A stretch of DNA of 64,000 bases from Longimicrobiaceae bacterium (GTDB taxonomy: Bacteria; Gemmatimonadota; Gemmatimonadetes; Longimicrobiales; Longimicrobiaceae). The stretch covers positions 56,736-120,735 of the forward strand of contig DASSTO010000009.1 of assembly GCA_035707865.1 (NCBI GenBank), read 5' to 3'. The notes beneath the pieces are model-generated. The model searched no databases and was not told where the DNA came from. It was given only the letters and a program-made list of their open reading frames with translations. Of the stretch, positions 7,708 through 63,538 are shown piece by piece. The position numbers and the translations under genes were made by a program. Numbering within the stretch: the first letter of the stretch is position 1; each line of letters begins with the position of its first letter.

Positions 7708-7756
7708 GGACAGCACGAAGCGCCGGAGCGAGGAGCCCCGGCGCTTCGTGCTGTCC
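7708..7756 (-). terminator. 19-bp perfect hairpin just downstream of parB
   Basis: GGACAGCACGAAGCGCCGG (7708-7726) pairs with CCGGCGCTTCGTGCTGTCC (7738-7756) around an 11-nt loop. It starts 19 nt after the parB stop on the minus strand. No U-tract follows. Confidence 0.45.
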
Positions 7757-7769
7757 GGTATACAGACGG
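7753..7769 (+). repeat. 17-mer GTCCGGTATACAGACGG, copy 1
   Basis: Identical to the reverse complement of 9705-9721, and matches 12917-12931 over 15 nt. Contains the GTATAC palindrome. Confidence 0.8.
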
Positions 7770-7774
7770 ATTCC

Positions 7775-8812
7775 TCAGTGGCGTGATCGCAGCCGCGCGG
7801 CCGCGCGCTCCAGCGCGTCGGCCAGCTCCCGTGCCGGCTCCGGGTCGACCGCGTCGACCGCGTCGGCCGCGCGCTCGGCGAGCACGGCGAGCGCCGGGGC
7901 CATCCGCGAGAGGTAGTGCGCGGCCTGGCGCGGGGAGAGCTCGGAGAGCGACTGCCGGATGTTGATCTGGAACCCGCGCCCCCCCGCCCCGCCCTCCTGT
8001 CTGCGCGCCTTCCGCCGCTCGATCAGCGCCTGCGCGGCGGCACTGTCGCCCGCGCGCTTCAGCTCGTGGAGGAGACGCTCGCTGCCCGCTTCCGGTCCCG
8101 TGTCCGCGTCGCGCGCGACCCGCAGCAGCGCCGCGAGCGAGAGCCGACCCATGCGCCGGTGGTCGGGCTCCCCGCCCCTCACCGCGCCCGCCCCCGCCAG
8201 GACGGCCGGCGTGAGCGCGTCGGCGGCGCGCAGGTACTCGCCGATCGTCTGGAACTTCTTCCCCACGCTCTCCGCCACGTCGCGTACGGTGGCGGGCGCG
8301 CCGCGGCGGCGCAGCGAGTCGCGCCGCTGCCGCCACGCGAGCGCCCACTCCCACGCGGAGAGGTCGGTGCGATCGAGGTTCTCGCTCAGCACCATCGCCT
8401 CGGCGCGCTCGTCGTCGACCTCGTCGACCTTGATCGGCACCAGCCAGTGGCCCTCCGCGTCCCGCTCCAGCACGCCGTCGGCCTCGCCGCGCTCGATCAA
8501 CCGCGCGACCGCCCGCAGGCGCATCTCCCCCGGGATCAGCTGTACCCACCCCGGCTTCTCGGGGTGCGGCCGCCCGCGCGGCTCGTGGATCAGCCCGTTC
8601 GCGCGGATGCTCTCCGCCAGTTCCTCGATCTCCCGCTCGGGAAAGACCCGCCGCACCTGGAAGGGCGACGCCTCGACGCGGTCGAGGCGCACCTGCTGGA
8701 TCCGCCCTTCCCCGCTCCGCCCGTCCCGGCGCGCGTCGTAGCTGAGGACGTTCTCGTCCAGCCGGATCGCCGGCGCCTCCGCGGCTCGGGCACTGCCCAG
8801 GCGCCGCGTCAT
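7775..8812 (-). CDS. parB: ParB-like partition protein (ParB/Spo0J N-terminal domain)
   Basis: 345 aa. The start ATG overlaps the parA stop (ATGA, 8809-8812). ParB N-domain pattern V.LDRVEASPFQVRRVF.EREIEELAESIRANGLI.P...R.......LIPGEMRLRA. The arginine patch reads GEMRLRA, not the canonical GERRxRA. The 621-aa track ORF is an upstream extension running antisense-free through parA in another frame. Confidence 0.85.
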   Translation of the reverse strand: MTRRLGSARAAEAPAIRLDENVLSYDARRDGRSGEGRIQQVRLDRVEASPFQVRRVFPEREIEELAESIRANGLIHEPRGRPHPEKPGWVQLIPGEMRLRAVARLIERGEADGVLERDAEGHWLVPIKVDEVDDERAEAMVLSENLDRTDLSAWEWALAWRQRRDSLRRRGAPATVRDVAESVGKKFQTIGEYLRAADALTPAVLAGAGAVRGGEPDHRRMGRLSLAALLRVARDADTGPEAGSERLLHELKRAGDSAAAQALIERRKARRQEGGAGGRGFQINIRQSLSELSPRQAAHYLSRMAPALAVLAERAADAVDAVDPEPARELADALERAAARLRSRH

Positions 8813-9558
8813 GCCACACCTCGCGCGGCGCCCGGCGCCGCCGTCTGCCGCTCCAGGCGCAGGCGCCCGAGCACCTCGGCGGCCACCTCGCAGTACGCGT
8901 ACGCGCTGCGGCTGCGCGGCGCCGAGACCGTCACGGGTACCTCGAAGAGCGCGGCCTCCCCGGCCGGCATCTCGTATGGCACCACCGGTTCCATCCGCGC
9001 CTGCGGATAGTGCTCGTCCACCTGCTCCCGCATCCAGCGGAAGAGGTTCGATTGCAGGTGCGCCAGCGTGAGGAGGATGCGCACGGCGGGCGGCTCGGGC
9101 TGCAGCCGCGCGAGCGTGAGCACGTCGTGCGCGCGCTCCAGGCTCTCCTTGCCCGGCATCGCCGGGATGATCACCAGTGCCGCCTCGCGCAGCGCCGCCG
9201 TGGTGATCGGCCCCAGCGCCGGCGGCGTGTCCACCACCACCAGGTCCGCGTCGAGCGCGGCCGCGCGCGCCAGGTGGCGGCGCGCCGTCTCCACGTCCAC
9301 GGCTTCCAGCGAGCGGCCGCCGCGCAGTAGCTGCAGGTCCATCTCCGGCTCGCCGTCGTAGCGCACGCGCACCGGCTCCGCCGCGAGCGGATCCGCCACG
9401 CGCGCGAAGCCCGACCGGCTCGTGAGATCGGCCTGCGGGTCGCCGTCCACCATCACCACCCGCACGCCGGCCTTGGCGATGACGTGCGCGACCGCGGCGA
9501 CCGACGCCGTCTTGAGCGTGCCACCCTTGGCACCGATGAACGCGAGAATCCTGGCCAT
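8809..9558 (-). CDS. parA: ParA/MinD-family partition ATPase
   Basis: 249 aa. Deviant Walker A AFIGAKGGTLKTAS, then VVMVDGDPQADLT and DLVVVDTPP (Walker B). Confidence 0.9.
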   Translation of the reverse strand: MARILAFIGAKGGTLKTASVAAVAHVIAKAGVRVVMVDGDPQADLTSRSGFARVADPLAAEPVRVRYDGEPEMDLQLLRGGRSLEAVDVETARRHLARAAALDADLVVVDTPPALGPITTAALREAALVIIPAMPGKESLERAHDVLTLARLQPEPPAVRILLTLAHLQSNLFRWMREQVDEHYPQARMEPVVPYEMPAGEAALFEVPVTVSAPRSRSAYAYCEVAAEVLGRLRLERQTAAPGAARGVA

Positions 9559-9623
9559 GTGTGTCGTCTGGAGTTGCCGGAGAGTATACCGCGGGGCTCG
9601 CGCGGGCTACAAAGGTGGCCCCC

Positions 9624-9635
9624 CGCGTATACGCG
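9624..9635. promoter_or_regulatory. 12-bp perfect palindrome CGCGTATACGCG upstream of parA
   Basis: Lies 66 nt upstream of the parA ATG. A further GTATACC occurs at 9584-9590. The GTATAC core is shared with the 17-mer repeats. Confidence 0.5.
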
Positions 9636-9651
9636 CGCAAGCCCCGGAGGC

Positions 9652-9697
9652 TTATCGGCTATCGGCTATCGGTAAACCGATAGCCGATAGCTGATAG
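9652..9697. repeat. inverted array of six heptads (3x [T/C]TATCGG, TAAA spacer, CCGATAG CCGATAG CTGATAG)
   Basis: TTATCGG CTATCGG CTATCGG (9652-9672), TAAA, CCGATAG CCGATAG CTGATAG (9677-9697). The arms are inverted complements with 2 mismatches. Lies 94-139 nt upstream of parA. Confidence 0.85.
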
Positions 9698-9704
9698 CCG
9701 GTGC

Positions 9705-9721
9705 CCGTCTGTATACCGGAC
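9705..9721 (-). repeat. 17-mer GTCCGGTATACAGACGG, copy 2 (inverted)
   Basis: The plus strand reads CCGTCTGTATACCGGAC, the exact reverse complement of 7753-7769. Confidence 0.8.
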
Positions 9722-9739
9722 GGAGAACCCGGAGCCCGC

Positions 9740-10660
9740 TTACGGCCGGATCTCGATGCGGAGCGCGCCGTAGCGGAGCGTCTGCCCGCCGTCGGGCGCC
9801 GTCTCGATCGTCACGGGGCCCAGGTGGAGGCGGCTCGAGCCGTCGGGCGACGACTCCAGCGCCAGCGCCGTACCGGCTGGGAGGTGGAGGGGATACGAGC
9901 CGAAGGCGAGTGACGGCGCGGCGGATGGGGCAGGGGAGGGAGCCGCGGACGGCCCGCCCGGGGCCGCGCCCGCTCGGGGTTCGGGGCTCGCGAACGCCGC
10001 GGCGGTGATCCGGGTGCGCAGCCGGCGGCCGGGAGCGCGCTCGATCAGACCCGCCGAGCCGAGAGCGGAGAGGGCGGTGGAGACGGCCGTCCGGCCGTAG
10101 GAGACGCTCTCGACGAGCGCCGGCAGACTGCCCTCGACCCAGGTGCTGCCGGCGTCGCCGGGCCGGGCGAGGCGCGCGATCTCACGCAGGACCGCGAGCG
10201 CCGGTGCGAGCGCCGCTCCGGAGCCGCCGAGCACCGCGCGCACCCGCTCCCAGCGCAGCCGGGCGACGCAGGGGAGCTCTCCCAGGATGTCGGGGTCCAG
10301 CCGGAGCCCCTCCTCCTCCCGCCCCAGCGTTCCAGCCTCGGCGAGCGCATCCATCCCCAGCACCACCTCCGCGTGAAGGAGCCCGGTCCGCTCCATCAGC
10401 TCTCCCTCGGTGAGGGGCAGCGCCTCGCCCCATCGCGGCCCGTTGGGGCCGGGCGCGCGCTGCTGCACGAGCTCCCCGATGGCGCTCGCCACCGCCTCCG
10501 CCGCCCGGGTGCGCAACGGGTCGGAACCCCGCTGGCCGGCACCCACCGCCCCGCGCACCAGCACCGGGCTCGGCACGCGGTCGCTCCCCGCGTGGAGCGG
10601 AAGCACGAGCGTGGGCCGGGGCCCCGGCGCGATGGACGATTCGGAGAGGGGTCTCTGCAT
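9740..10660 (-). CDS. hypothetical protein with winged-helix-like segment
   Basis: 306 aa from ATG 10660 (the track ORF opens at GTG 10759, inside an iteron). HTH-like stretch LVESVSYGRTAVSTALSALGSAGLIERAP. Sits between rep and parA. Confidence 0.5.
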   Translation of the reverse strand: MQRPLSESSIAPGPRPTLVLPLHAGSDRVPSPVLVRGAVGAGQRGSDPLRTRAAEAVASAIGELVQQRAPGPNGPRWGEALPLTEGELMERTGLLHAEVVLGMDALAEAGTLGREEEGLRLDPDILGELPCVARLRWERVRAVLGGSGAALAPALAVLREIARLARPGDAGSTWVEGSLPALVESVSYGRTAVSTALSALGSAGLIERAPGRRLRTRITAAAFASPEPRAGAAPGGPSAAPSPAPSAAPSLAFGSYPLHLPAGTALALESSPDGSSRLHLGPVTIETAPDGGQTLRYGALRIEIRP

Positions 10661-10668
10661 CACGGGTT

Positions 10669-10686
10669 CGTCGGGTGCTCCTTCAC
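10669..10686 (-). repeat. iteron-like 18-mer, copy 1 (GTGAAGGAGCACCCGACG on minus strand)
   Basis: 17/18 match to copies 2 and 4. Ends 9 nt upstream of the orf ATG at 10660. Confidence 0.7.
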
Positions 10687-10741
10687 GCTCCGAGAGGCTG
10701 ATGGGAGGGGTGCATCGTCCGGCGCCGCGCCTGCTGTACGA

Positions 10742-10759
10742 CGTCGGGTACTCCTTCAC
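10742..10759 (-). repeat. iteron-like 18-mer, copy 2 (GTGAAGGAGTACCCGACG on minus strand)
   Basis: Identical to copy 4. Lies 73 nt from copy 1. Confidence 0.7.
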
Positions 10760-10904
10760 ACCGACCGCGTTCCATCCGCGAGCAAAGCGCGTTCCGGGGT
10801 CGGTAGCATAGACCGATCTCCTCGCGAATGCAAGGATTCCACCCCCTCCCGCTCACGCGTATCGTTCGCGCTCCGCTCGCGGTCGATCCGTGACCGGTTC
10901 GCCC

Positions 10905-10922
10905 GTGAAGAAGTACCCGACG
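10905..10922 (+). repeat. iteron-like 18-mer, copy 3 (GTGAAGAAGTACCCGACG)
   Basis: 17/18 match. Opposite orientation to copies 1 and 2. Confidence 0.7.
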
Positions 10923-11072
10923 AAGGCTCCACACGGACCTATCCGCCCGGACTTCCGGCGCTCCTGCGAGTCTCCTCGCGTCACCTCCCGCCCGTGGCGC
11001 CACGAAACGTTCGCGAACCGGTCGGCATGCGCGCCGGACGTCGGTATCCGGCAGGAGCGACCGGCCGTCGGG

Positions 11073-11090
11073 GTGAAGGAGTACCCGACG
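11073..11090 (+). repeat. iteron-like 18-mer, copy 4 (GTGAAGGAGTACCCGACG)
   Basis: Identical to the reverse complement of 10742-10759. The flanks GTCGG(G/T)GTGAAGG are also similar. Confidence 0.7.
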
Positions 11091-11230
11091 ACGACGTGCA
11101 CCCGTACGCAACGTCGGAGCGCACGAGCACGTGACGGCGGGAGGGGAGAAAGCGAGATCCCGGGCCGTGAACGGCTGCCCGGGATCCTCTCCGTAGAGTA
11201 GTGTTCGTCTTGTTCTATGGACAGACGGAC

Positions 11231-12901
11231 TCAACCGGACGGGGGCCTCGCGATGTGGAGGTCGAGGCGAACGGGGCGGCCGAGCGCGTCGGAAAGGGCG
11301 GTTTCGAGGCGCGCGCCGTACCGTTCGGAAATCCACTCGCGGGCGAAGGAGTTGGGTACGGCGACGACGACGTGGTCCCCGGCGATCTCCTGCATCCACG
11401 TCTCGCGGAACCAGGTGGTGAAGATCATCGGGGCGAGCTCCGGGCGGATCTGCGCGAGCGCGGTGCCCCAGGGATCGTCCGGAAGGGCGAAGTCCGGCGC
11501 CGACGGGGTGACGGGCTCGGGCGGGGTCGGCAGGAGCGTGGTGGGCGGGGCGGGGGACTCGGGCTGCTCGCGCAGGCTGGCGAGCTCGAAGCGGTCCGCG
11601 CGGCGGCGGGCCCACCGCTCGTACTCGGGCTCCTTGAATTCCCAGCCCTGCTCGAGCGCGGAGCCGATCCAGGAGTGCCACGCGACGATCGGCTTGCCCT
11701 TGGCGTCGAGACCCTGCTTCTCGGTCCGCACGTAGTGGACGCGCTGGAGCACCTCCTGCACGCGCATCCCGTGGCGTCGCAGCAGCGCCCGCGCCTCGCC
11801 GGCGGGGATCTGGTACTGCCCGAGCTGGCTGATGAGCACCCGGGTGCGCACCGGATCGAGCGCGCCGATGCCCCGCGCGGCCGCGGCGTCGCAGACCACC
11901 CGGCCAGGCATCAGGTCCACCCGGTAGACACCCCGGCGGATCGAAGCGACCTCGAACTGGTCGACCACGCCGTAGCCCTGCAGCTCCTTCAGCGCCGCGC
12001 GGAAGCGGTTCGCCACGTCGGCCGGCCGTTCGGACGTCTGCGCGCCGAGCACCTCCAGCCAGCTCGAGAGGATCTCCGAATGCCGCGCCGGGCGCCATCC
12101 CTGCGCGACCGCGAGCACCAGGCGCAGGTAGATGCCCTTCGCCACGGCGCTCCGCAGCGAGTTGTGCACTTCCAGGTCGATCCACGCGGCGATGCCGGTC
12201 TCCGTCTGCCCGAGCCAGATCGGGTTGATGCGCAGGAGGTGGATGACGTCGGTCGAGTCGTTCGCGCGCACCTCGCTCTCGACGTCGTACTCGAGGATCC
12301 AGTGCGTCACGTCGCGCTCACGCCGCCGCGGCCGGCCCGTGCCTGGCGCGGGCGCCGTCTCTCCGGAGCGCACCTGCTCCACCTCGCGCTCGAAGACCAT
12401 CTCCATGTTCGTCTGCACGGTGGTGTTCGCCCACCGGCCCAGCGCGCGCTTGACGGCGTTCACCTTCCCCCCCGTCACCCGCATCTCCGAGCCCGGGCGC
12501 GAGGCGAGCAGGATCGCGCGGTAGGAGACGTCCTGGAAGGTGCCGTCGGGGGCGACGACGCCCTGATCCACCAGGCTCCCGAGTCCGAGCAGGTAATCGA
12601 GGTCGTAGATGTTCGGCAGCCCCAGGAGCGGACTGCCGCTGACGCGCGCCTCGAAGCGGCTCCCGTCCGGATAGGCGATCACGTTGCGCTGGAAGGCGTG
12701 CGCCGGGTTCGCCACCAGCCCGTGCTCGTCGGTGGCGTAGGAGGTCTCCAGCGGCAGCCGGATGCAGCTCAGCAGGTAGAGCGGCCCCGGGACCGGCGTC
12801 TGGACCAGGTGGTCGGGCGCGAAGAGCGCGTCCGGGCTGTCCATCCGGACACGGGGAAAGTGCAGGGCGGTCGAGCGCCCCGGACGGGGATCGTTCGGCA
12901 T
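11231..12901 (-). CDS. plasmid replication initiator (RPA/RepA-like N-terminal part + DnaA-N-like C-terminal domain)
   Basis: 556 aa. N-terminal ...LLGLPNIYDLDYLLGLGSLV... resembles the Replication-initiator-protein-A family (GlaTifDkDiLiy pattern). The C-terminal IFTTWFRETWMQEIAGDHVVVAVPNSFAREWISERYGARLETALSDALGRPVRLDL closely follows the DnaA domain I pattern (F.TW..PL......L.L.VPN.F..DW....Y...I..AL). Confidence 0.75.
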   Translation of the reverse strand: MPNDPRPGRSTALHFPRVRMDSPDALFAPDHLVQTPVPGPLYLLSCIRLPLETSYATDEHGLVANPAHAFQRNVIAYPDGSRFEARVSGSPLLGLPNIYDLDYLLGLGSLVDQGVVAPDGTFQDVSYRAILLASRPGSEMRVTGGKVNAVKRALGRWANTTVQTNMEMVFEREVEQVRSGETAPAPGTGRPRRRERDVTHWILEYDVESEVRANDSTDVIHLLRINPIWLGQTETGIAAWIDLEVHNSLRSAVAKGIYLRLVLAVAQGWRPARHSEILSSWLEVLGAQTSERPADVANRFRAALKELQGYGVVDQFEVASIRRGVYRVDLMPGRVVCDAAAARGIGALDPVRTRVLISQLGQYQIPAGEARALLRRHGMRVQEVLQRVHYVRTEKQGLDAKGKPIVAWHSWIGSALEQGWEFKEPEYERWARRRADRFELASLREQPESPAPPTTLLPTPPEPVTPSAPDFALPDDPWGTALAQIRPELAPMIFTTWFRETWMQEIAGDHVVVAVPNSFAREWISERYGARLETALSDALGRPVRLDLHIARPPSG

Positions 12902-12916: not shown

Positions 12917-12931
12917 GTCCGGTATACAGAC
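12917..12931 (+). repeat. 17-mer family, copy 3 (GTCCGGTATACAGAC, 15 nt conserved)
   Basis: Lies 16 nt upstream of the rep ATG (12901) on the opposite-sense side. A further partial match ACAGACGGA(C/T)TC occurs at 11221-11232, at the rep stop. Confidence 0.7.
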
Positions 12932-12953
12932 TGAGCGGATGAAGGACGAAAAG

Positions 12954-13013
12954 CTATCAGCTATCGGATATCAGACAGGTAGTTGCTGATAGCCGATAGC
13001 TGATAGCTGATAG
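12954..13013. repeat. inverted array of seven heptads (CTATCAG CTATCGG ATATCAG, 11-nt spacer, CTGATAG CCGATAG CTGATAG CTGATAG)
   Basis: 12954-12974 and 12986-13013. Same heptad family as 9652-9697. Lies 53-112 nt upstream of the rep start. Confidence 0.85.
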
Positions 13014-13039
13014 CCGGGGTGGAAGGGCAGGGCAGGGCC

Positions 13040-13420
13040 CTACTCGTCCAGGATCTCGCGCACGATCCGACCCAGCTCCTGCAGGTCCACCGGCTTCTCG
13101 ACGAAAGTGATCTGCGCCTCGTCCTCCATGAGCTGGAAAGCGCCCTCCATGTCGGCGTACCCGGAGCAGAGGATGACCTTGATCTCCGGGTAGATCTCGC
13201 GGATCCGCCAGACGAGCTCCCGCCCGCCCATCCCGGGCATCACGATGTCCGAGATCAGCAGATCGATGGGGGCTCCGTGCGACTGGGCCACGGCGAGCCC
13301 CTCCTTGCCATCCGTGGCGGTCAGCACCGTGTACCCCTGACGCTGGAGCGAGCGCGTGAGGATGGAGGCGAGCTGCGGCTCATCCTCGACGACGAGAACG
13401 ACCTCGGAGACTGCGTTCAT
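13040..13420 (-). CDS. single-domain CheY-like response regulator
   Basis: 126 aa. VLVVEDEP, DLLISDIVMPGMGG, ILCSGY and EKP give a complete receiver signature. Confidence 0.9.
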   Translation of the reverse strand: MNAVSEVVLVVEDEPQLASILTRSLQRQGYTVLTATDGKEGLAVAQSHGAPIDLLISDIVMPGMGGRELVWRIREIYPEIKVILCSGYADMEGAFQLMEDEAQITFVEKPVDLQELGRIVREILDE

Positions 13421-13580
13421 CGGGAATCGCGGGGGTGCTCTGGCAAACTGAATCGGGCCGGGGATGTCCCCGGCCCCGAGAATAGCGGGGTGGCACGACG
13501 CGAATCACAGATCGTCCGGCGCGGCGGTAGTGCGGACATTCGCTTGATCTTACCCACGCGCTGGTGCGGGGGCAAGCGCC

Positions 13581-14534
13581 TCACGCACCGGTGGCCGCCG
13601 ACTGCGCGATCCAGTCGAAGGTGTTTCGCAACCCTGTCCTCAGGTCGGTTCGCGGCTCCCAGCCGAACGAGCGGAGCTTGGCCGTGTCGAGGCTCGAGTG
13701 CATCAGCTCGCCGGGGCGCGCCGGCGCGTGCTCCACCGGGACCCGCCGCCCGGATGCGTCCATGAGGATGGCCGCGAGCTCGTTGACGCTCGTCTCCAGG
13801 CCGGTTCCCACGTTGAAGCCGCGGTCGTCCAGAGTGCGCGCGGGCGCCAGCTCGGCGTCGCTGAGACGGAGGTTGGCCGCGACGACGTCGCCGACGTAGA
13901 CGTAGTCGCGCGTCTGCTCGCCATCGCCGAAGACCCGCAGCGGCTGCCCCTCGAGGAGGTGTGTGGAGAAGATCGCCACCACGCCGGCCTCGCCGTGCGG
14001 GTCCTGCCGCGGCCCGTAGACGTTGGAGTAGCGCAGCGCCACGTACTCCAGGCCGTGCACGCGGTGGTAGTAGTAGAGGTACTGCTCGCCGGCGAGCTTC
14101 GTCACCCCGTACGGGCTGCTGGGGAGCTTCGGCATGGTCTCCGGCGTGGGCCGCACCTCCGGCTCGCCGTAGACGACGCCGCCGGAGGAGACGTAGACGA
14201 CGCGCTCCACGCCCGTCTCGCGCGCCGCTTCGAGCAGGTTCAGCAGCCCGTCGACGTTGACGCTCGCGTCGAAGCGCGGGTCGGCCACGGAGACGCGCAC
14301 GTCCATCTGGGCCGCGTGGTGGTTGATGATCGCCGGCTTCCACTCGCGGATGAGCGCGGCGGTGGCGTCGTCGCGGATGTCGAGCTGCACGAACTCCGCG
14401 CCCTCGGGCAGGTTGGAGACGCGGCCGTGAACCAGGCTGTCCACCACGAGCACCTCGTCTCCCCGCGCGAGGTACGCGCCGGCGACGTGCGAGCCGATGA
14501 AGCCGGCGCCGCCGGTAACCAGAACTCGAGCCAT
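13581..14534 (-). CDS. NAD-dependent sugar epimerase/dehydratase (GalE-like SDR)
   Basis: 317 aa. VLVTGGAGFIGSH Rossmann motif and catalytic SPYGVTK (YxxxK). Confidence 0.85.
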   Translation of the reverse strand: MARVLVTGGAGFIGSHVAGAYLARGDEVLVVDSLVHGRVSNLPEGAEFVQLDIRDDATAALIREWKPAIINHHAAQMDVRVSVADPRFDASVNVDGLLNLLEAARETGVERVVYVSSGGVVYGEPEVRPTPETMPKLPSSPYGVTKLAGEQYLYYYHRVHGLEYVALRYSNVYGPRQDPHGEAGVVAIFSTHLLEGQPLRVFGDGEQTRDYVYVGDVVAANLRLSDAELAPARTLDDRGFNVGTGLETSVNELAAILMDASGRRVPVEHAPARPGELMHSSLDTAKLRSFGWEPRTDLRTGLRNTFDWIAQSAATGA

Positions 14535-14583
14535 GAAAGAATCCAGGTAGAGGTTCGTTGGGAGCCCTCGCGAGAGGACCCTC

Positions 14584-17586: not shown

Positions 17587-17651
17587 TCGTATGCGGGATC
17601 GGGAATGCTCGGCCACCGGGGCGGAGAGCTCACGGCCTCGTGGTTTCACCT

Positions 17652-51279: not shown

Positions 51280-51293
51280 GGACTTCCTGTAGC
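51280..51293 (+). promoter_or_regulatory. weak sigma-54-like element
   Basis: CGGACT-TCCTG-TAGC with correct GG-N10-GC spacing but only partial matches to the hexamers. The -12 GC lies ~91 nt upstream of ATG 51384. Confidence 0.25.
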
Positions 51294-51383
51294 TTTTGCA
51301 GCGGTTTCAACCGCCGGGCGAGGGATCGCCGGAGGTGAGGGCCGGCCGCGGCATGCGCCGACCGCTCCGAGGAGGGCGCTGAG

Positions 51384-52745: not shown

Positions 52746-52748
52746 CCG

Positions 52749-54719: not shown

Positions 54720-54814
54720 CGCTGTTCAGAGCAAACCCGTCGAAAGGCGGGGACGCAGAGTCACGGGGCTACGGGGGAGAAGCTGCTCTTCCCACGCCCG
54801 CCGGGCCGCCAGCG
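54720..54814 (+). ncRNA. c-di-GMP-I (GEMM-I)-like riboswitch aptamer, copy 2
   Basis: CGCUG-UUCAGAGCAAACC-CGUC GAAA GGCGG-GGACGCAGAGUCACGGGGCUAC-...-CGCCCGCCGGGCCGC-CAGCG. Same core as copy 1, with compensatory stem changes. Confidence 0.8.
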
Positions 54815-55010
54815 ACCTGATCCGCCGCGTTCGCGCGAGATCCAGGTAGCGGCGGCCTTTCCGTTTATATGACCCCTTCGGTTCGCGCGGACGACTACAG
54901 TTTTCGCCGCGCGCTGCCGACACTGTGATGGCGAGGGGGTGTGGAACGCCAGCCCGGGTCTCCCCTGTGGGACTCCGCGCTGTCCTCGACACCTCCTCGA
55001 CAACTCACAG

Positions 55011-55100
55011 CGCTGCTCAGAGCAAAGCCGGCGAAAGCCGGTGGCGCAGAGCCACGGGACTACAGCGGCGCGAGCCGCCATGTCCGCCGGGCCGCCAGCG
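55011..55100 (+). ncRNA. c-di-GMP-I (GEMM-I)-like riboswitch aptamer, copy 3
   Basis: CGCUG-CUCAGAGCAAA-GCCGGC GAAA GCCGGU-GGCGCAGAGCCACGGGACUAC-AGCGGC(GCGA)GCCGC-CAUGUCCGCCGGGCCGC-CAGCG. Confidence 0.75.
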
Positions 55101-55242
55101 ATTCGGCCGATGCAGAGAGACCCTCTCTCCCATCGGCAGGACCTGGCGGCTTTTTCGTGCCCCTGGTCCTCAGGCATTCACGGCCGCGGACCCCGACAAC
55201 TGGTCGGGGTCGGGCCAAAGCAATAACTTGAGGAGGAAGCTG

Positions 55243-57234: not shown

Positions 57235-58101
57235 TCACCGGCGCTCGTCCGGCACTCCTCTCATCTTCGCGATCCCGCTTCGGACTCGCCCGACCGGGAG
57301 ATGCACGGCACGCCGGAAGAGTAGGTACCCGAGTTCGCGGGACGACCTCACAGGCGTACCGTGCTCTCCGTCTCGCCCCGCGAATTCGCTGGCCACCTCC
57401 TTGCGCAGGCGCTCTTCCCCGTATTCCGCCACCTGCCGGGGGTACAGCTCGTCGCGGGCGAAGCGGTAGAGCTCCAGGTCCAGCTGGTTGCGCTCCACAC
57501 ACTGCTCGCGGTACCGCTCCGCGATCGAGCGCCGCTTCTCGCCGGACTGCGCCGGGTTGTGGGGTCGTCCATACCAGGGGTCGAGCCCATTCAATCCGAG
57601 TGCCTGCCGCACGAGGAGGAGCGACTCGTCGAAGCGCTCCAGGAGCCCGATCGCGCGATAGCGGCTGGCGAGGATCTGCTTCGCGGCTTCCACGTCCTGC
57701 TCGCCCGCCAGGAACTGCGTCTGCCAGTTGTGCTGGATCGGCTGCTCCATCCACTGCTCGAAGGGCGCGGTGACGCCCATGTGCTCCACGTGGTACTGGT
57801 AGTGGGAGAGGAAGCGCGAGACCGGCTCTCGCAGAAAGATGTACCACGCCAGGCGGTCCTCGAACTCGCCGAAGTCCACGAACGGCCGCAGCCAGTGGCC
57901 GCCGATGCTGCGCGCCCACGGGTTCAGCCGGAGGTCCGCGGCCAGGTCCTTCTTCCGGTAGATCCAGCCGCGCGGCGGGTTCACCAGCATGTGACGGACC
58001 CCGAAGTGGCGGCGCATCACCGCTTCCACGGTGGTGCCGCCCGCCTTCTGGACGTGCGAGAAGCACGCGATCGGCGCGTCGCCTCGTCCGCTCGTACTCA
58101 T
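57235..58101 (-). CDS. sulfotransferase-family protein (Sulfotransfer_2-like)
   Basis: 288 aa from ATG 58101 (ATGA overlap with the upstream stop). 5'-PSB-like FSHVQKAGGTT, 3'-PB-like FLREPVSRFLSHYQY, and later GLLERFDESLLL. Confidence 0.7.
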   Translation of the reverse strand: MSTSGRGDAPIACFSHVQKAGGTTVEAVMRRHFGVRHMLVNPPRGWIYRKKDLAADLRLNPWARSIGGHWLRPFVDFGEFEDRLAWYIFLREPVSRFLSHYQYHVEHMGVTAPFEQWMEQPIQHNWQTQFLAGEQDVEAAKQILASRYRAIGLLERFDESLLLVRQALGLNGLDPWYGRPHNPAQSGEKRRSIAERYREQCVERNQLDLELYRFARDELYPRQVAEYGEERLRKEVASEFAGRDGEHGTPVRSSRELGYLLFRRAVHLPVGRVRSGIAKMRGVPDERR

Positions 58102-59087
58102 TCGCTTGTCATGCGTGCCAGTACAATCAGGTGCTCTCCCATCATCAGGTGCGAAATGAGCCATTTCACGCCCTGCTTCGCTCGGGAGATCGTCCGTCGT
58201 CGGATCGCCGGGCGGTTCGGCTGGGCAACCGCGGGAACGGCGGGCGCTGCCTCCATCTTGGGTCGGACCGGTGCTGCAAAGAACTCCTCAACGCCCATCC
58301 CAACCGCACGAACGGAGATCGGATCGTAGCCGGCCTGGCGGAGGATCATCAGAAGCTGGCGTGCGGCGAAGTAATACAGGTGGATCGGGAACGCCTGGAA
58401 GCGCTGTCCCTGTCGTGGAAGGCGCCTGGACAGAGGGGTCCCGGCGATTCGCGCACGCAACGAACCCACGTTCGGTACCTCGACCATCAGAATACCCCCG
58501 GGCTCCAGCATCCGGCGAACCTTCCCGAGAGTCTCCCGCGCATCCGGAAGGTGCTCGAGCACGTGAATCATGGTAACCGCGGCGGTGCGCACTCCCGCGG
58601 CGAGTGCCTCCGGCAAATCGGCGTAGACCCGGAAGCCCCGCACCGCGAGGTTCTCACGGGCGAGATCTCCTGGCTCTACACCGTATGCTTCCATGCCCCG
58701 CGCCGATGCAGCATGCAACAGAGCACCGGCACCGCAACCAAGGTCGAGCAGAGTCCCCGGAGTACACACCTGCATCAGCAACGAGAGCCGGAACGCGGCA
58801 TCGGCTGCGTCGGACGCGGCGTAGGACGCATCGTGGCAGTGATAGTCTGCGCGATTGTAGAATGAGCGGAGTAGCTCACCCGCGGGCCGCGGATTGGTGA
58901 AGGTGAACCCACAGCTACGGCAGTGCGAGAGCGCGAGGCGACTTTCGACTTCCGCGAAGTGATCGCGCCCGATCCACACTGTCGGAGCCGGTCGCGAGCC
59001 CAACCGCGTCGAGTCGCAGATCGGGCAAGCGGTGAGCACTTCGAGATTTTCCGGGTGGGGCGGCCTGTCGAGCGAAAGCGTGCTCAT
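58098..59087 (-). CDS. class I SAM-dependent methyltransferase with N-terminal zinc ribbon
   Basis: 329 aa. CPICDS...CRSCGF. SAM motif I LLDLGCGAGALL. HVLEHLPD. Confidence 0.8.
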   Translation of the reverse strand: MSTLSLDRPPHPENLEVLTACPICDSTRLGSRPAPTVWIGRDHFAEVESRLALSHCRSCGFTFTNPRPAGELLRSFYNRADYHCHDASYAASDAADAAFRLSLLMQVCTPGTLLDLGCGAGALLHAASARGMEAYGVEPGDLARENLAVRGFRVYADLPEALAAGVRTAAVTMIHVLEHLPDARETLGKVRRMLEPGGILMVEVPNVGSLRARIAGTPLSRRLPRQGQRFQAFPIHLYYFAARQLLMILRQAGYDPISVRAVGMGVEEFFAAPVRPKMEAAPAVPAVAQPNRPAIRRRTISRAKQGVKWLISHLMMGEHLIVLARMTSE

Positions 59088-59213
59088 CAGCGGAGGGAGC
59101 CAGGGTAAAGGGTGCCAGGCGAGCTCCTACCCCATTCGGGCATATGGCGCAGCGAAAAACGGCCACCGTCGGGCGCAAGCGGAGTAAGGTCACGCCAGAT
59201 CCCGGTCTGTTCT

Positions 59214-61361
59214 TCATCGCTCCAAGCTCACGGCCCGCCCCGTCCGCAGCGACTCCTCGATCGCGAAGGTGGCGCGCGTCGTCCGTGCGAGCGAGTCGAC
59301 CGCGATCGGCGGCGCACCGCCCCGCAGCGCGCTCAGAAAGGACGCGACCTCGGCGTCGAAGCCCTTGTCCTGCGCCTTGCCTCCGCTCTCGCTCGCTTTC
59401 CCGCCGCGCTGGACGGTGAGGGTGCGGAAGTCGTCGAGCACGCCCACCGCCCCGCCGCCGAAGACCTCCACCCGCTCCTTCGGGTAGCTCCTGTCGCCCG
59501 TGGCGAAGTAGTCGATGCTCGCCACGGAGCCGCCGCGCATCCGCAGCGCGATCGTGACGGTGTCGTGGGTCGCCCCCTGCGCGCCGCCGAGGCTGTAGGC
59601 GAAGACCTCCGCCACCTCGTCGTCGGCCAGGTACTGCACGAGATCGACGAAGTGGCAGACCTCGCCGATGATGCGGCCGCCGCCCTGCTCCGCGTCGTGG
59701 ATCCAGTGCCCGGCCGGGATGGGGCCGGCGTTCACCCGGTAGTGGATGGCGAGCGGGCCCGCGTTCGCGAACTCCTTCCGGAGCGAGCGGGCGAGCGGAG
59801 AGAAGCGGCGGTTGAAGCCGACGGTGAGCAGCCGACCCGTCTCCGCCTGCGCCTCGAGGATCTCCCGGAGCTCCTCCTCGTTCAGCGCGAGGGGCTTCTC
59901 GACGAAGACCGCCTTCCCGGCGCGCAGCGCGTCGGTGACGTAGCGCGCGTGCGAGCCGTGGCGGGTGGTGATGACGACGGCGTCCACGCGCTCGTCGCGC
60001 AGCAGCTCGGAGGCGTCGGTGGTGCAGAGCTGAAAGCCGAACCTCTCGCCGGTGGAGCGCGCGCTCGGGCCGGTGGCGGTGGCGATCCCCACCATCTCCA
60101 CGCCCTTACCGCGGGCGAAGCGCGGGAGCAGCGTGGCCTTTCCGAAACTCCCCGCGCCGATGAACCCGAGGCCGATCTGGCCGCTGGCGGTGGTGCGCGG
60201 CCGCAGCTCGACCACGCGCGTGACCGGCTGCTCGGCGGCCTCCGGGTAGCTCAGCAGGATGCCGAGGTAGGGCTCGTCCACCTCGCCGCCGATGAGGTGG
60301 TAGGCGGCGCCGGCGGCGGCGACGGGGAAGCTGTGCGTGCTGAGGCGGCCGGGCGTGACCCGGCCGGCGGCGACGAGCTGGAGGAACTCCTCCATGTTGC
60401 GCCGCTCCGTCCAGCGCACGTAGCCGATGGGGTAATCCTGGCCCTTCTCCTCGTACGCGGGGTCGTAGCGGCCGGGCCCGTAGGAGCGCGAGAGGCGCAG
60501 CTCGAGCTCCTTGCGGTAGTACGTCTCGCGCGGGATGTCCATTCGCACCGCGCCGACCATGGAGACGCGGCCTCGGTCTCGACAGATCTCGCCCGCCAGC
60601 TCGATGGGGTCGTTGCTGTTGGCGGCGGCCGTGATGACGACCGCGTCCACCCCGACACCGCCAGTGAAGGTCGCCACGGCGGCCGGGACGTCGTCCGAGC
60701 GCACCACGGCGGCGTCGGCACCCAGCTCGCGGGCCAGGGCCACCTTGCTCGGGTCCAGGTCGATGCCGAGCACGCGGCAGCCCGAGGCCCGGAGGATCTG
60801 CACGGCGAGCTGGCCGAGGAGGCCGAGCCCGATCACCGCCACGCGGTCGCCCAGGCGCACGTCGGCGATGCGCACGCCCTGCATGGCGATGGCGCCGAGC
60901 GTAACGTAGGCCGCGTCGTCGAAGGAGACGCCGTCGGGGATCGCCACGACGAGGTTCTTCGGGACGACCACCACCTCCGCGTGGTTGGCGTATCCCGCGC
61001 CCGCGCAGGCGACGCGCTGCCCGACGGAGAACTCCTCCGCTCCCCTTCCCACCTCCTCCACCACCCCCGCGCAGGAGTAGCCGAGCGGGATGGGCATGTC
61101 GAGGCGGTTCATCACCGCCTCCAGCGTCGGGCGGATGCCGTCCTTCGCCATCCTCTCCAGCACCTGCTTCACCAGGTCGGGGCGGCTGCGGGCCTTCTCC
61201 AGCAGCGACTTGCTGCCGAAGTCGACGGCCGTCTTCTCCGTGCCCGCGCTGATGAGTGAGGCCGCGGTGCGCACGAGGACGCTGCCCGAGTGCGCCCGGG
61301 GCGCGGGCACCTCGAGCACCTGCGTGGCGCGGGAACGATCGTTCTGGATCACCTGCTTCAT
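59214..61361 (-). CDS. bi-domain oxidoreductase (MDR alcohol-dehydrogenase-like + Gfo/Idh/MocA)
   Basis: 715 aa. N-terminal GYSCAGVVEEVG and VAVIGLGLLGQLAVQIL. C-terminal IGLGFIGAGSFGKATLLPRF with the Gfo/Idh/MocA pattern. Confidence 0.85.
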   Translation of the reverse strand: MKQVIQNDRSRATQVLEVPAPRAHSGSVLVRTAASLISAGTEKTAVDFGSKSLLEKARSRPDLVKQVLERMAKDGIRPTLEAVMNRLDMPIPLGYSCAGVVEEVGRGAEEFSVGQRVACAGAGYANHAEVVVVPKNLVVAIPDGVSFDDAAYVTLGAIAMQGVRIADVRLGDRVAVIGLGLLGQLAVQILRASGCRVLGIDLDPSKVALARELGADAAVVRSDDVPAAVATFTGGVGVDAVVITAAANSNDPIELAGEICRDRGRVSMVGAVRMDIPRETYYRKELELRLSRSYGPGRYDPAYEEKGQDYPIGYVRWTERRNMEEFLQLVAAGRVTPGRLSTHSFPVAAAGAAYHLIGGEVDEPYLGILLSYPEAAEQPVTRVVELRPRTTASGQIGLGFIGAGSFGKATLLPRFARGKGVEMVGIATATGPSARSTGERFGFQLCTTDASELLRDERVDAVVITTRHGSHARYVTDALRAGKAVFVEKPLALNEEELREILEAQAETGRLLTVGFNRRFSPLARSLRKEFANAGPLAIHYRVNAGPIPAGHWIHDAEQGGGRIIGEVCHFVDLVQYLADDEVAEVFAYSLGGAQGATHDTVTIALRMRGGSVASIDYFATGDRSYPKERVEVFGGGAVGVLDDFRTLTVQRGGKASESGGKAQDKGFDAEVASFLSALRGGAPPIAVDSLARTTRATFAIEESLRTGRAVSLER

Positions 61362-62248
61362 TGCACCTGTTCCGTCTGCTGTCCTCGGGCCTGGAGACCC
61401 TCGGCGTGACCACCGCTGCCACTCCTGCGCAGCACGAACTCGTTGCAGCCCAGCCCGTTGTTCCGCTTCACCACGACCGGCTCGAAGCCGCGGTCGCTGT
61501 AGTAGCGTAGGATCTCGTCCGCGGTAGCGACCTCGTAGGGGTAACCGCCGACCCAGTCGATGATGTCACGCCAGCGGCTCATGCCGCGGTTGCCCCGGTA
61601 GCGGGTCCAGAGGTGGACGTACTCCTGCGGGCGCAGCCGGAGCACGGCGCGGCCGACCGTCCTCGCCTCGTACGGCAGCATCGCCAGCACGGCGTAGGGC
61701 GCGCGCAGGGGGGCCGGGAGCCCGCAGTAGCGCTTCTTGAGCCTCCGCCAGCGGTCGCTCTCCGGGCCCATGTCGTTGTAGAGGGCGATGAAAAGGAGTC
61801 CGCCGTCGGCGACACGCGCATGGACGAGATCCAGCGCCTTCCACATGTCTCCCGTGTGGTGGAGCACCCCCCATGAATACACTATGCCGAACGTGCCCAG
61901 TGACGCGAGATAGTCCGCGTCGAGCGCCGAGCCCTCCTCCACCGTCCACCGGAGGTCGTCCGGGAAGTAGCGCCGACGCAGCTCCCGCGTGCAGGCAACC
62001 GACTGGGGATCGTAGTCCAGCGAGTGCACCGTCGCGCCGAGGCGCCGGGCCGCGAGACTGAAGAGCCCGCTCCCCGAGCCGATGTCGAGGAAGCTGCGGC
62101 CCTCGAGATCGTGGACCCCCAGCATCTCTTGCAGCGACTCCTGCGCGCGCTGGATCCGGCCTTCGTCGAGCAGCCCGAGGAAGCGCGCCCAGTTCGCACC
62201 GAACTCGAAGCGTTCTCCCCGCGATACCTCGCTCGCATGTTCGCTCAT
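61358..62248 (-). CDS. class I SAM-dependent methyltransferase
   Basis: 296 aa. SAM motif I FLDIGSGSGLFSLAARRLGA. Its stop overlaps the oxidoreductase start (ATGA). Confidence 0.8.
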   Translation of the reverse strand: MSEHASEVSRGERFEFGANWARFLGLLDEGRIQRAQESLQEMLGVHDLEGRSFLDIGSGSGLFSLAARRLGATVHSLDYDPQSVACTRELRRRYFPDDLRWTVEEGSALDADYLASLGTFGIVYSWGVLHHTGDMWKALDLVHARVADGGLLFIALYNDMGPESDRWRRLKKRYCGLPAPLRAPYAVLAMLPYEARTVGRAVLRLRPQEYVHLWTRYRGNRGMSRWRDIIDWVGGYPYEVATADEILRYYSDRGFEPVVVKRNNGLGCNEFVLRRSGSGGHAEGLQARGQQTEQVQ

Positions 62249-62290
62249 CGAAAGCCGCTGGCAGCGGTGAACGAGTGGAGAGAACAGGAT

Positions 62291-63538
62291 TCAGCACGCA
62301 GAGTCGAGGGGCGTACCCAGTTGCTGATTCAGCAGCCGCGCCATCTCCGCGCAGCGCCCCGGCCACGACTCGCCCGCCATCGCGAGCGCCGCGTCGCGCC
62401 GCGCATCCGCGTCGAGCCCGGCGTCCAGGAAGGAGCGGATGCCGGCGATGAACTCCTCCGGTGCGCGCGCGGTGCGCAGCATCGGGTTGTCGCGTAGCAG
62501 CTCGATCTCCGGCAGCGCGGTGGCGACCACCGGCATCCCGGCGGAGAGGTACTCGCGGAGCTTGATCGGATTGACCGCGGCCGTGAGCTCGTTGATGACG
62601 AAGGGGATCAGCCCCACGTCGAAGGCCGCGGAGTAGGCCGGAAGCTCGGCGTAGGGCCTCTGCCCCAGCAGCCGGACGTTGCGCCGGCTCTCCAGCCGGC
62701 TCACGTCGGCCTGGACCTTCCCGATCAGCACGAGCGTCGCTTCCGGAAAGGCGTCGGCCAGCGTGCAGAGCAGGTCCTGGTCCACCCACTCGTGGAGGAG
62801 ACCGAAGAAGCCGAGGATCGGCCCCTCGACGTCGGCGATGTCGGCGGGACGGGGAGGAGCGTCGAGCGCCGCCTTCGCGAAGTGCCCCCACTCCACGCCG
62901 TGCCGCATGAGGTATGCCCTCTCCGTGTACTCCCGGCAATCGTCCAGCAGCTCCGCGGAGGAGGCGAAGACGACGTCCGCCTCGCGGCAGAGCTGCGCGT
63001 GGCAGGCGCGCATCACCGCGCCGTCGTAGTCCGAGAAGGACCACCAGCGGTCCACGCAGTGGTAGACGAGTCCGCGGCCGGGGAGCTTCGCCAGGTACGG
63101 CGCCACGGTGGGCGTGTAGACCCAGCGCAGCGGCTCGCCGCGGAAGCCCAGCTTGCGGACGGTGCTCCGGATGGAAGCGCGGTAGAGCTCCCGGTTGATG
63201 GCGTTGGCGACGCGGCTGCCGGGCAGGGGCACGCTCAGCGCGCTGAGGACGTGGAGCCGCTCGTGCTCCCGGATCAGCCCGCCGAAGGAGCGCTTCAGCC
63301 GGCCCCAGATCCGGCTCAGGTCCGTGGCTTTCGAGAGCTGGGGCCGCCGCATCCCGCTGGACTCCACCCAGAGCACGTCCGTGTGCCGGGAGAAGCTCCG
63401 CATGATGTGGTGCTTGCTCGTGGGATCGCCGCGCCAGTCGTTGGCGAAGCAGACGATCGGCGGGGCGTCGCGCAGGGCCGCCGCGAGCTCGGCCTCGATC
63501 GCGGAGACCCCCTCCGGGGCCGCGGTCGTCGAGTTCAT
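62291..63538 (-). CDS. glycosyltransferase (GT-B fold, GT1/GT4-like)
   Basis: 415 aa from ATG 63538, which overlaps the upstream stop by 1 nt (TGATG). C-terminal FDVGLIPFVINELTAAVNPIKLREYLSAGMPVVAT. Confidence 0.75.
   Translation of the reverse strand: MNSTTAAPEGVSAIEAELAAALRDAPPIVCFANDWRGDPTSKHHIMRSFSRHTDVLWVESSGMRRPQLSKATDLSRIWGRLKRSFGGLIREHERLHVLSALSVPLPGSRVANAINRELYRASIRSTVRKLGFRGEPLRWVYTPTVAPYLAKLPGRGLVYHCVDRWWSFSDYDGAVMRACHAQLCREADVVFASSAELLDDCREYTERAYLMRHGVEWGHFAKAALDAPPRPADIADVEGPILGFFGLLHEWVDQDLLCTLADAFPEATLVLIGKVQADVSRLESRRNVRLLGQRPYAELPAYSAAFDVGLIPFVINELTAAVNPIKLREYLSAGMPVVATALPEIELLRDNPMLRTARAPEEFIAGIRSFLDAGLDADARRDAALAMAGESWPGRCAEMARLLNQQLGTPLDSAC

Follow-up and report, generated by a model that had tools for sequence, protein, structure and literature searches.

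A conserved exosortase matrix locus with c-di-GMP riboswitches, juxtaposed to a plasmid-type replication and partition cassette in a Longimicrobiaceae bacterium

Introduction

The closest described system is that of the plasmid pDV1 of Desulfovibrio/Nitratidesulfovibrio vulgaris Hildenborough, which carries a complete XrtA/PEP-CTERM extracellular polysaccharide (EPS) system together with EpsI, a sigma-54 regulator, PrsK, and a phenylacetate-CoA-ligase-family protein. DVUA0057, a regulator encoded on this plasmid, targets PEP-CTERM genes, and a strain lacking pDV1 forms about 3-fold less biofilm (PMC3333781); the pDV1-encoded REC-HD-GYP phosphodiesterase DVUA0086 is active on cyclic di-GMP (c-di-GMP) in vitro (PMC4114195). 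Here, we analyze a stretch of 64,000 nucleotides of a Longimicrobiaceae bacterium from soil (Gemmatimonadota; assembly GCA_035707865.1, contig DASSTO010000009.1, positions 56,736 to 120,735), referred to below as the window, in which an exosortase/EPS locus with c-di-GMP riboswitches lies near a replication and partition (rep/par) cassette.

Exosortase homologues were detected by tblastn on 27 plasmids of the PLSDB collection, and the 55-kb plasmid pPfer1 of Paludibaculum likewise carries an EPS cluster that includes an exosortase; no riboswitch was found in that region. In view of pDV1 and these 27 plasmids, the claim of a first-pass annotation of this DNA that such a combination is undescribed for exosortase systems was too strong. 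In Geobacter sulfurreducens, cyclic-dinucleotide (GEMM-I) riboswitches regulate the genes gsu1945 and gsu1948 (PMC10599522, PMC7726332). On the megaplasmid pSYSM of Synechocystis PCC 6803, xss is a Wzx/Wzy-type EPS cluster with sulfotransferases (PMC8205485), an example showing that it is not uncommon for regulated matrix loci to reside on secondary replicons. Full-text searches of the literature retrieved no paper that as such describes an exosortase locus containing c-di-GMP riboswitches, and none on the replication initiator family described below.

Judged by gene order and sequence comparison with relatives, the rep/par backbone and the c-di-GMP-wired exosortase locus evolve as two separate units, which in this case lie side by side. 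We consider it rather probable that the window belongs to a secondary replicon of 132 kb or more, be it an iteron-type plasmid, a megaplasmid, or a chromid, which carries the conserved matrix locus of the lineage.

Results

Conservation of the exosortase/EPS locus

As the window has a G+C content of about 71% with a very strong third-position bias, genes were called by GC1/2/3 periodicity, and they were annotated with Pfam, NCBIfam, and Rfam. Every component class named in the first-pass annotation was recovered in this way at the place assigned to it.

The exosortase/EPS block (about 28.8-54.6 kb, some 16 kb from the rep/par cassette) is a locus whose synteny is conserved in Longimicrobiales. 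Exosortase homologues numbered more than 3,500 at E ≤ 1e-20; among the best 120, identities were 59-72%, with one more at 99%, and the small number that carry names belong to Longimicrobiaceae or Longimicrobiales. The block begins with a Wza-like exporter (28863-29732, minus strand; PF02563), a REC/degenerate-GGDEF protein (29972-31033, plus strand), and a Wzc-like chain-length determinant and tyrosine autokinase (31129-33528, minus strand; TIGR01007, 125 bits against a cut-off of 108). On the plus strand follow a sigma-54 response regulator (34815-36278), a histidine kinase of 355 aa (36322-37389), a priming sugar transferase (PF02397, in the segment 37612-41472), the exosortase (38373-39266), EpsI (39299-39907), PEP-CTERM protein 2 (40085-40801), a small membrane protein (40834-41472), and the series GT4, AsnB, GT1, Wzy_C (PF04932), AsnB, CapK-like ligase, and AsnB (43252-54623; Pfam and NCBIfam). 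On an 873-kb contig of a relative (L009), this order is kept from Wza through to the second AsnB. A 5.78-Mb contig (L007, about 1.0 Mb into the contig) has the order in common with the window, but without the REC protein and the sigma-54 pair, and in L010 (on a 290-kb contig) and L011, the block goes on with the CapK-like ligase and AsnB.

To the left, this synteny reaches no further than Wza. In L007 and L009, its left neighbors are a TonB-dependent receptor and a rhomboid protease, and none of the window's outer membrane protein (OMP), YkuD, PEP-CTERM, or c-di-GMP genes occurs to the left of Wza there. As synteny stops at Wza, the cluster of diguanylate cyclases and phosphodiesterases (DGC/PDE) lies outside the conserved block, as far as these two relatives with a read left flank are concerned.

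Scanning GTDB genomes with a profile of the ligase yielded 70 loci from Gemmatimonadota and Acidobacteriota on contigs of up to 4.8 Mb. The GT4-AsnB-GT1-AsnB-ligase-AsnB block was present in 31-38 of the 70 and Wzy_C in 16, and neither Rep nor X, ParA, or ParB was encoded within 10 kb of any of these EPS loci. Likewise, the EPS contigs of L007, L009, and L010 (5.78, 0.87, and 0.29 Mb) contained no detectable homologue of the window's Rep. By these comparisons, the exosortase/EPS block is conserved and resides mostly on chromosomes. Since it lies on chromosome-scale contigs in relatives, its juxtaposition with rep/par appears to be strain- or lineage-specific and does not indicate a jointly moving module.

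The rep/par cassette

The first-pass annotation had credited the region with its own replication and partition functions, and this view held: homologues, cis elements, and the Rep fold identify a genuine, intact plasmid-type cassette that is not a chromosomal parAB/dnaA region. A chromosomal origin with parAB and dnaA was considered and rejected, because the window contains no canonical chromosomal parS, and no DnaA boxes were found near the iterons or elsewhere in the origin region.

The Rep initiator (537 aa; 11231-12844, minus strand; an alternative start at 12901 would give 556 aa) comprises two winged-helix-like domains and a C-terminal DnaA-domain-I, which Pfam detects as DnaA_N at residues 477-537. 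An AlphaFold (AF2) model generated from 28 homologues reached a predicted local distance difference test (pLDDT) of 82, and its top Foldseek matches were domains 2-3 of RctB (E 1.5e-6), DnaA domain I at the C-terminus, and the Pi/iteron complex (E 0.011). The model thus points to an initiator with a winged-helix Rep fold of the RctB/Pi type. Gene X (306 aa; 9740-10660, minus strand) is a conserved partner that always directly follows Rep, with identities of 49% in L006, 34% in L004 and L005, and 29% in L012; it has weak winged helix-turn-helix-like matches (GntR, Crp), which stay below threshold.

The rep-X spacer contains four 18-bp iterons, GTGAAGGAGTACCCGACG, two per strand (10669-11090), where 0.09 would be expected, and is a candidate replication origin (oriV). 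Every relative (L004, L005, L006, and L012) has its own iterons in the corresponding spacer, and these are identical to ours at 73% Rep identity (L006), related at 48% (L004 and L005), and different at 32% (L012). Such co-variation of iterons and Rep is the behavior of iteron plasmids, and the repeated putative initiator sites adjoin rep and are specific to the replicon, as in iteron replicons. Rep-X and the iterons most likely form an iteron-type replication module, in which an initiator that joins an RctB/Pi-like body of two winged helices to a C-terminus resembling DnaA domain I, and that is paired with X, would target the four spacer sites.

The partition genes encode a ParA-type P-loop ATPase (249 aa; 8809-9558, minus strand; Pfam AAA_31 and CbiA) and a ParB-family protein (345 aa; 7775-8812, minus strand; Pfam ParB_N, E 5.6e-8), the latter only marginally above the TIGR00180 cut-off (59.7 against 58.45 bits). 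They correspond to the protein pair of ParABS systems, a ParA ATPase and a ParB with ParB_N. ParA is 75% identical in L004 and L005 and 30% identical on the Gemmatirosa plasmids described below, and ParB is 63-65% identical in L004 and L005.

Two further repeat types accompany these genes. The 14-mer TCCGGTATACAGAC occurs in three exact copies in the window (0.11 expected): just beyond the parB stop, adjoining a hairpin at 7706-7758 (copy 1, 7754-7767, plus strand), upstream of parA (copy 2, 9707-9720), and upstream of rep (copy 3, 12918-12931). Palindromic arrays of the heptad GATAGCY (8 matches, 0.03 expected) are located beside copies 2 and 3, at 9653-9703 upstream of parA and at 12952-13014 upstream of rep, and nowhere else in the window. 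The core of the 14-mer is identical in L004 (8316 and 9888) and L005 (13088), which share ParAB and in which Rep and the iterons have diverged; it is missing from L006, which has identical iterons but no ParAB nearby. The heptad arrays, like the 14-mer, track ParAB. As the iterons follow Rep and the 14-mer follows ParAB, the 14-mer is a candidate parS, i.e., the putative centromere of ParAB. Segregation would then involve ParA, ParB, the three 14-mers, and the heptad arrays in front of parA and rep.

As a side aspect, Gemmatirosa plasmid 2 (L002) has palindromic arrays of the heptad CGAGTCC beside ParA, with three 19-bp repeats upstream (9234-9354 and 8133-8200). This is the same kind of array architecture in a very distant relative.

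Replicon status and alternative explanations

The order Rep-X-ParA-ParB is kept in L004 and L005, in both of which Rep is 48% identical, and Rep-X is kept in L006 and L012; the neighbors of the cassette differ among the relatives examined (L004, L005, and L006). In a large protein collection, we found 39 Rep homologues, all of metagenomic origin and one of them named Longimicrobium. Their longest contigs measure 208, 162, and 132 kb, the last being the window's own contig (132,307 bp), and none exceeds 209 kb, in contrast to the 2-5.8 Mb reached by exosortase and ligase homologues in the same kinds of data. No cluster of Rep matches had a longest contig of 289,658, 873,086, or 5,781,501 bp, the sizes of the contigs with syntenic EPS loci. 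A tblastn search of PLSDB with Rep gave only two meaningful matches, plasmids 1 and 2 of Gemmatirosa kalamazoonensis KBS708 (29% identity over residues 79-553; E 1e-33 to 1e-35 when aligned with the two loci alone), both with ParA a few kb away. Megablast of the two window halves against PLSDB found no close plasmid, and scans with a Rep profile gave no match in GTDB genome contigs or viral contigs and only three short loci in JGI metagenome contigs.

Regarding composition, GC3 is 0.93-0.95 in all blocks without any break, GC skew was uninformative, and the 64-kb window contains no tRNA, rRNA, or obvious core genes. A chromid is characterized by core or essential genes and by a composition near that of its chromosome; in this respect, the 64 kb show a uniform GC3 and no obvious core gene.

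Several points weigh against a separate replicon that carries a wired matrix locus. The uniform GC3 is one of them. The nearest Rep relative, that of L006, is flanked by housekeeping-like genes (DNA ligase, Lhr helicase, and SurE), with no ParAB nearby, and at least one relative, that with the 5.78-Mb contig, has the EPS locus on its chromosome, so that the cassette could be an integrated element in a poorly assembled chromosome. Our analysis covered 64 kb of the 132,307-bp contig, the stretch from 12.3 to 23.3 kb between Rep and the c-di-GMP cluster is bridged by no independent assembly, and the comparison of the left flank with its DGC/PDE genes rests on L007 and L009 and not on L010, the closest relative with a long contig. 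With respect to the regulatory wiring, sigma-54 promoter matches are not above chance window-wide (11 found, 15 expected).

Some of these points favor a chromosomal locus with an integrated or domesticated plasmid rep/par cassette nearby, as do the synteny of the EPS core on the 0.87-Mb and 5.78-Mb contigs and the lack of transfer genes in the window: among the Pfam and NCBIfam matches of all window gene calls, there is no relaxase, type IV secretion system (T4SS) or coupling protein (T4CP), integrase, or transposase. Nevertheless, we regard this explanation as unlikely. All four cassette genes are intact with full coding signal, as are the iterons, heptad arrays, and 14-mers, neither an integrase nor flanking repeats were found around the cassette, and the size limit of the contigs with Rep homologues speaks against a chromosomal residence. 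The first-pass annotation had named, as the outcome that would speak against its own reading, a chromosomal region syntenic across relatives with absent or decayed rep/par genes; the former applies to the EPS part, whereas rep/par here are neither absent nor decayed.

Quite improbable is the proposal of the first-pass annotation that replication, c-di-GMP signaling, RNA and protein sensing, and exosortase output form one portable, co-adapted module that is inherited and transferred together. It is true that all parts are located within 56 kb, that the cassette is of the plasmid type, and that the riboswitches and the receptor candidate are embedded in the EPS locus. However, comparative genomics does not reveal a block that travels as a whole, as the cassette and the EPS locus occur separately in relatives: the cassette has other neighbors in L004, L005, and L006, and the EPS locus is found without the cassette in all 70 loci as well as in L007, L009, and L010. 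Moreover, synteny does not extend to the left of Wza, only 3 of the 70 related loci have riboswitches, the window lacks a relaxase and T4SS, and the Gemmatirosa plasmids with the related Rep are typed as non-mobilizable. Although a self-contained mobile biofilm module would be of greater interest, it finds no support in the comparative data.

Finally, a metagenome assembly chimera of a plasmid fragment and a chromosomal EPS region, for which one could invoke the metagenomic source, the unconfirmed 12.3-23.3 kb, and the fact that L003 and L087 are separate pieces, is highly improbable, since there is no compositional break, no mis-join-prone repeat was seen at the block borders, and these two independent Logan contigs of the same strain and the same sample (SRR25158513) match 7719-12265 and 23343-32200 at 99.96% and 100% identity, respectively, that of L087 extending across the entire latter interval.

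c-di-GMP riboswitches and the lipoproteins behind them

Three c-di-GMP-I riboswitches (Rfam RF01051) are located on the plus strand. Riboswitch 1 (41984-42130) consists of an aptamer at 41984-42077 and an overlapping intrinsic terminator at about 42068-42130, and riboswitches 2 (aptamer 54720-54813) and 3 (aptamer 55011-55099) are arranged in tandem (54720-55156), each with its own terminator. The aptamers cover model positions 1-87 of 87 with 55.8, 55.4, and 51.4 bits at a gathering score of 35. Directly behind riboswitch 1, a gene for lipoprotein 1 (42228-43193, plus strand) encodes a lipobox and three Big_2 domains. Lipoprotein 2 (625 aa; 55243-57120, plus strand) lies behind riboswitches 2 and 3 and has a lipobox; its N-terminal part is Ig-like, and its C-terminal domain consists of helices only. 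The latter showed weak matches to (alpha/alpha)6 glycosidases (GH47, GH76, and GH127-like); a single-sequence AlphaFold prediction of this domain had a pLDDT of 42, and a sequence search of the PDB returned only noise.

In L010, a 290-kb metagenome-assembled genome contig of Longimicrobiaceae whose ligase is 74% identical, units of riboswitch and Big_2 lipoprotein occur at the same two positions as in the window, before GT4 and after the third AsnB, with one switch at the second position where the window has two. An orthologue of lipoprotein 1 and a homologue of lipoprotein 2 are among the genes that follow riboswitches in L010. Both riboswitches and lipoproteins are missing from L007, L009, and L011, which are more distant. 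With a covariance model built from the five aptamers of the window and L010, riboswitches were found in 3 of the 70 related loci overall, and further copies in only 2 of the 70. In L063 (Gemmatimonadaceae), the riboswitch precedes a protein with Big_2 and a right-handed beta-helix (8494-10302), and in L029 (Acidobacteriota), it precedes a homologue of lipoprotein 2 (18421-19641); both proteins have Ig domains. By these occurrences, the RNA-level wiring is a recurrent but lineage-restricted add-on to this locus type that is independent of any plasmid backbone. The two lipoprotein genes have a GC3 of 0.89 and a GC content of 0.67, slightly below all other blocks, which is consistent with later insertion into the locus.

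All five aptamers end in the invariant GGCCGCCAGCG. Downstream, just before a U-run, lies a CGCUGGCGGCC with which it pairs, and P1 cannot form at the same time. GGCCGCCAGCG has a part in two structures: in P1 it is the 3' strand, and in a strong terminator, with -29 to -49 kcal/mol for the platform by itself, it makes up the 5' arm. As P1 and the terminator are mutually exclusive and termination is the default, stabilization of P1 by the ligand should give read-through. All the riboswitches are therefore predicted to be transcriptional ON switches. In the window, the three switches would gate the lipoprotein with three Big_2 domains and the Ig-plus-helical, possibly glycan-active lipoprotein, and the two switches in series ahead of the latter should sharpen its threshold. 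The domain content of lipoprotein 2 and of the beta-helix protein of L063 suggests that the riboswitch-gated genes of these EPS loci do not encode plain adhesins but c-di-GMP-gated glycan-remodeling enzymes.

c-di-GMP enzymes and a candidate receptor

The c-di-GMP enzymes, the three RNA sensors, and the one candidate protein sensor of the first-pass annotation are real, with intact enzyme motifs and aptamer scores of 51-56 bits. A minus-strand signaling cluster (13040-18686) encodes a single-domain REC protein (13040-13420), an NAD epimerase (13581-14534; both by Pfam), a GAF-HisKA-PAS-GGDEF-EAL protein (14584-17520) with intact GGDEF, RxxD, EALLR, and DDFGTG motifs, and a REC-HD-GYP protein (17652-18686) with intact HDIGK, HHE, and GYP. 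Further to the right, Pfam identifies a VanZ-like protein (19211-20419) and a hybrid PAS-PAS-HK-REC kinase (20459-22534), both on the plus strand, followed by a PAS-GGDEF cyclase (22545-23324, minus strand) with intact GGDEF and RxxD. The GGDEF-EAL, PAS-GGDEF, and REC-HD-GYP proteins with their kinase and receiver partners could set the c-di-GMP level; what ties them to the EPS locus is proximity only. In the GGDEF-EAL protein, a HisKA-like domain (residues 329-381, H-box HEVNNPL) without ATPase domain was noticed between GAF and PAS, which may be a phosphotransfer or dimerization module.

The REC/degenerate-GGDEF protein between Wza and Wzc (353 aa) is a candidate c-di-GMP receptor. Its receiver domain lacks the phospho-acceptor Asp, and its GGDEF motif is degenerate (GGYFV), with an RSSD I-site five residues upstream (RSSD-VVGRI-GGYFV); the Pfam GGDEF match has an E-value of 0.014, and NCBIfam gave alignments with PleD and DgcR. 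The gene belongs to the conserved locus, although it is absent in L007, and the 40% identical L009 orthologue keeps the I-site as RTSD and has SPKEY in place of GGDEF. Retention of RxxD with loss of GGDEF fits an I-site receptor, as does the combination of a degenerate A-site with RxxD five residues upstream, in agreement with PopA/PelD-like logic. The protein is thus likely a c-di-GMP receptor that would act on export or polymerization, with c-di-GMP binding being predicted.

Exosortase, PEP-CTERM proteins, and the sigma-54 pair

The exosortase was recognized by TIGR02602 (148.5 bits against a cut-off of 105.55) and PF09721 (211 bits) and scored below the cut-offs of the subtypes XrtA (TIGR03109, 162.7 against 208) and XrtD (TIGR04152, 187 against 400), which leaves its subtype unclassified. 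EpsI starts 33 bp past the exosortase gene and scored 109.2 bits with TIGR02914 against a cut-off of 42.8. PEP-CTERM proteins 1 (25313-26073, plus strand) and 2 were identified by TIGR02595 and PF07589 (24.1 and 22.7 bits, respectively, against the NCBIfam cut-off of 16); the motif of PEP-CTERM protein 3 (26450-27040, minus strand) was recognized by eye, and its 18.7 bits are below the Pfam cut-off of 20.7.

The response regulator scored 368 bits with the PrsR model (TIGR02915; cut-off 502.6), and PrsK (TIGR02916) was not among the best 25 family matches of the kinase. By profile scores, the two form a generic sigma-54 two-component system that takes the place of PrsR/PrsK in the locus. A sigma-54-like -24/-12 site, GGGCACaccgcTTGCA (27125-27140, minus strand), is located 85 nt upstream of PEP-CTERM gene 3, and a near-consensus -24/-12 element (39861-39876) is located 224 nt upstream of PEP-CTERM gene 2. 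The probable targets of the pair are the PEP-CTERM and EPS operons.

The divergent spacer between Wzc and the sigma-54 operon (33529-34152) measures 625 bp and is followed by an extra gene (34153-34779, plus strand; 208 aa, no assigned function); in L009, the gap is 275 bp and the extra gene is lacking. An open reading frame at 33600-34814 was rejected as an Arg/Pro-rich artifact, the true gene there being the extra gene.

Polysaccharide pathway and remaining genes

The pathway had been described as a full Wza/Wzc/Wzy-type one. Wza, Wzc, the priming transferase, and a Wzy-like polymerase (Wzy_C) were confirmed, accompanied by three GT4/GT1 glycosyltransferases, three AsnB amidotransferases, and the CapK-like ligase. 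A Wzx flippase was not found, as no window gene call matched a flippase family, so that the window does not demonstrate the full pathway; the flippase could be encoded beyond the 64 kb. Together with Wza, the minus-strand segment 27240-29732 encodes a YkuD L,D-transpeptidase and an OMP beta-barrel. At the right end (57235-64000, minus strand), Pfam detected a sulfotransferase, a methyltransferase, an ADH/GFO oxidoreductase, another methyltransferase, a GT1, and a heparinase II/III-like protein that extends past the window end.

At the left end, an orphan gene for a PAAR-domain protein (spike tip of type VI secretion) is located at 113-382, and other genes of a type VI secretion system were not seen. 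A few kb from rep/par, the segment 429-6337 encodes a TPR/CsgG-like lipoprotein, a 377-aa protein without assigned function, and a large Big_2/RCC1-repeat protein. Homologues of these three (27-38% identity) are encoded on Gemmatirosa plasmid 1 (L001, 7020-9813), about 2-5 kb from the Rep homologue. The trio could be a surface or secretion set that is conserved along with the backbone, or a chance association.

Discussion

Beyond the rather probable placement of the window on a secondary replicon, we tentatively put forward, as a possibility that we would not yet bet on, that Rep-X-ParA-ParB represents an undescribed family of Gemmatimonadota secondary replicons, marked by an RctB/Pi-like initiator with DnaA domain I, cognate iterons, the 14-mer as centromere candidate, and heptad arrays as operators, one member of which has here captured an otherwise chromosomal exosortase locus with a local c-di-GMP circuit. 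If this is true, matrix production is inherited on a separate replicon and could be lost or cured.

Gemmatimonadota are abundant in soil; very few of their strains have been cultured, and genetic tools are practically lacking. The putative minimal replicon (rep-X with iterons, and parAB with the 14-mer) offers a starting point for a shuttle vector and for recognizing Gemmatimonadota plasmids in metagenomes. The mechanism of exosortases is poorly understood, and the riboswitch-gated lipoproteins provide a simple, testable read-out of c-di-GMP control in an exosortase locus.

Comparison with known systems

On the side of replication, the Rep model superposes on domains 2-3 of Vibrio cholerae RctB with a template modeling (TM) score of 0.57 on the target, and on R6K Pi in its iteron complex. 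The window shares with these systems the repeated sites (18 bp here) next to the initiator gene and the adjacent ParAB, but Rep differs in its low sequence identity of 8-14%, the C-terminal DnaA-domain-I-like module, the obligatory partner X, and the lack of DnaA boxes. The two Gemmatirosa plasmids, of about 1.1 Mb (plasmid 1) and 1.0 Mb (plasmid 2), both typed as non-mobilizable and both without annotation in PLSDB, are very distant and far larger and have another gene order, with X not being detected.

Regarding regulated matrix loci, Synechocystis xss differs from the window in that it has no exosortase/PEP-CTERM component and no c-di-GMP riboswitches. In Geobacter, gsu1945 and gsu1948 are near the PEP-CTERM genes GSU1943/1944 and PrsR/PrsK (GSU1940/1941), an adjacency that we take from the locus tags and that would put GEMM-I switches within a neighborhood of exosortase substrates. 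Unlike in the window, that locus is chromosomal and other genes are gated; a tandem switch pair or a Big_2 lipoprotein is not shown.

The plasmid pDV1 has, like the window, a chain-length determinant, a tyrosine autokinase, glycosyltransferases, an O-antigen-ligase-like protein, a phenylacetate-CoA-ligase-family protein, an exosortase, EpsI, and a sigma-54 regulator. In contrast to the window, it belongs to another phylum and replicon type, has a bona fide XrtA and PrsK as well as a flippase, and contains no c-di-GMP riboswitch in the 40.8 kb around its exosortase. Compared with this precedent, only the riboswitch layer, including the tandem pair predicted to gate an Ig-domain lipoprotein, and the replicon family are new, so that the window represents an incremental extension of what pDV1 had already established.

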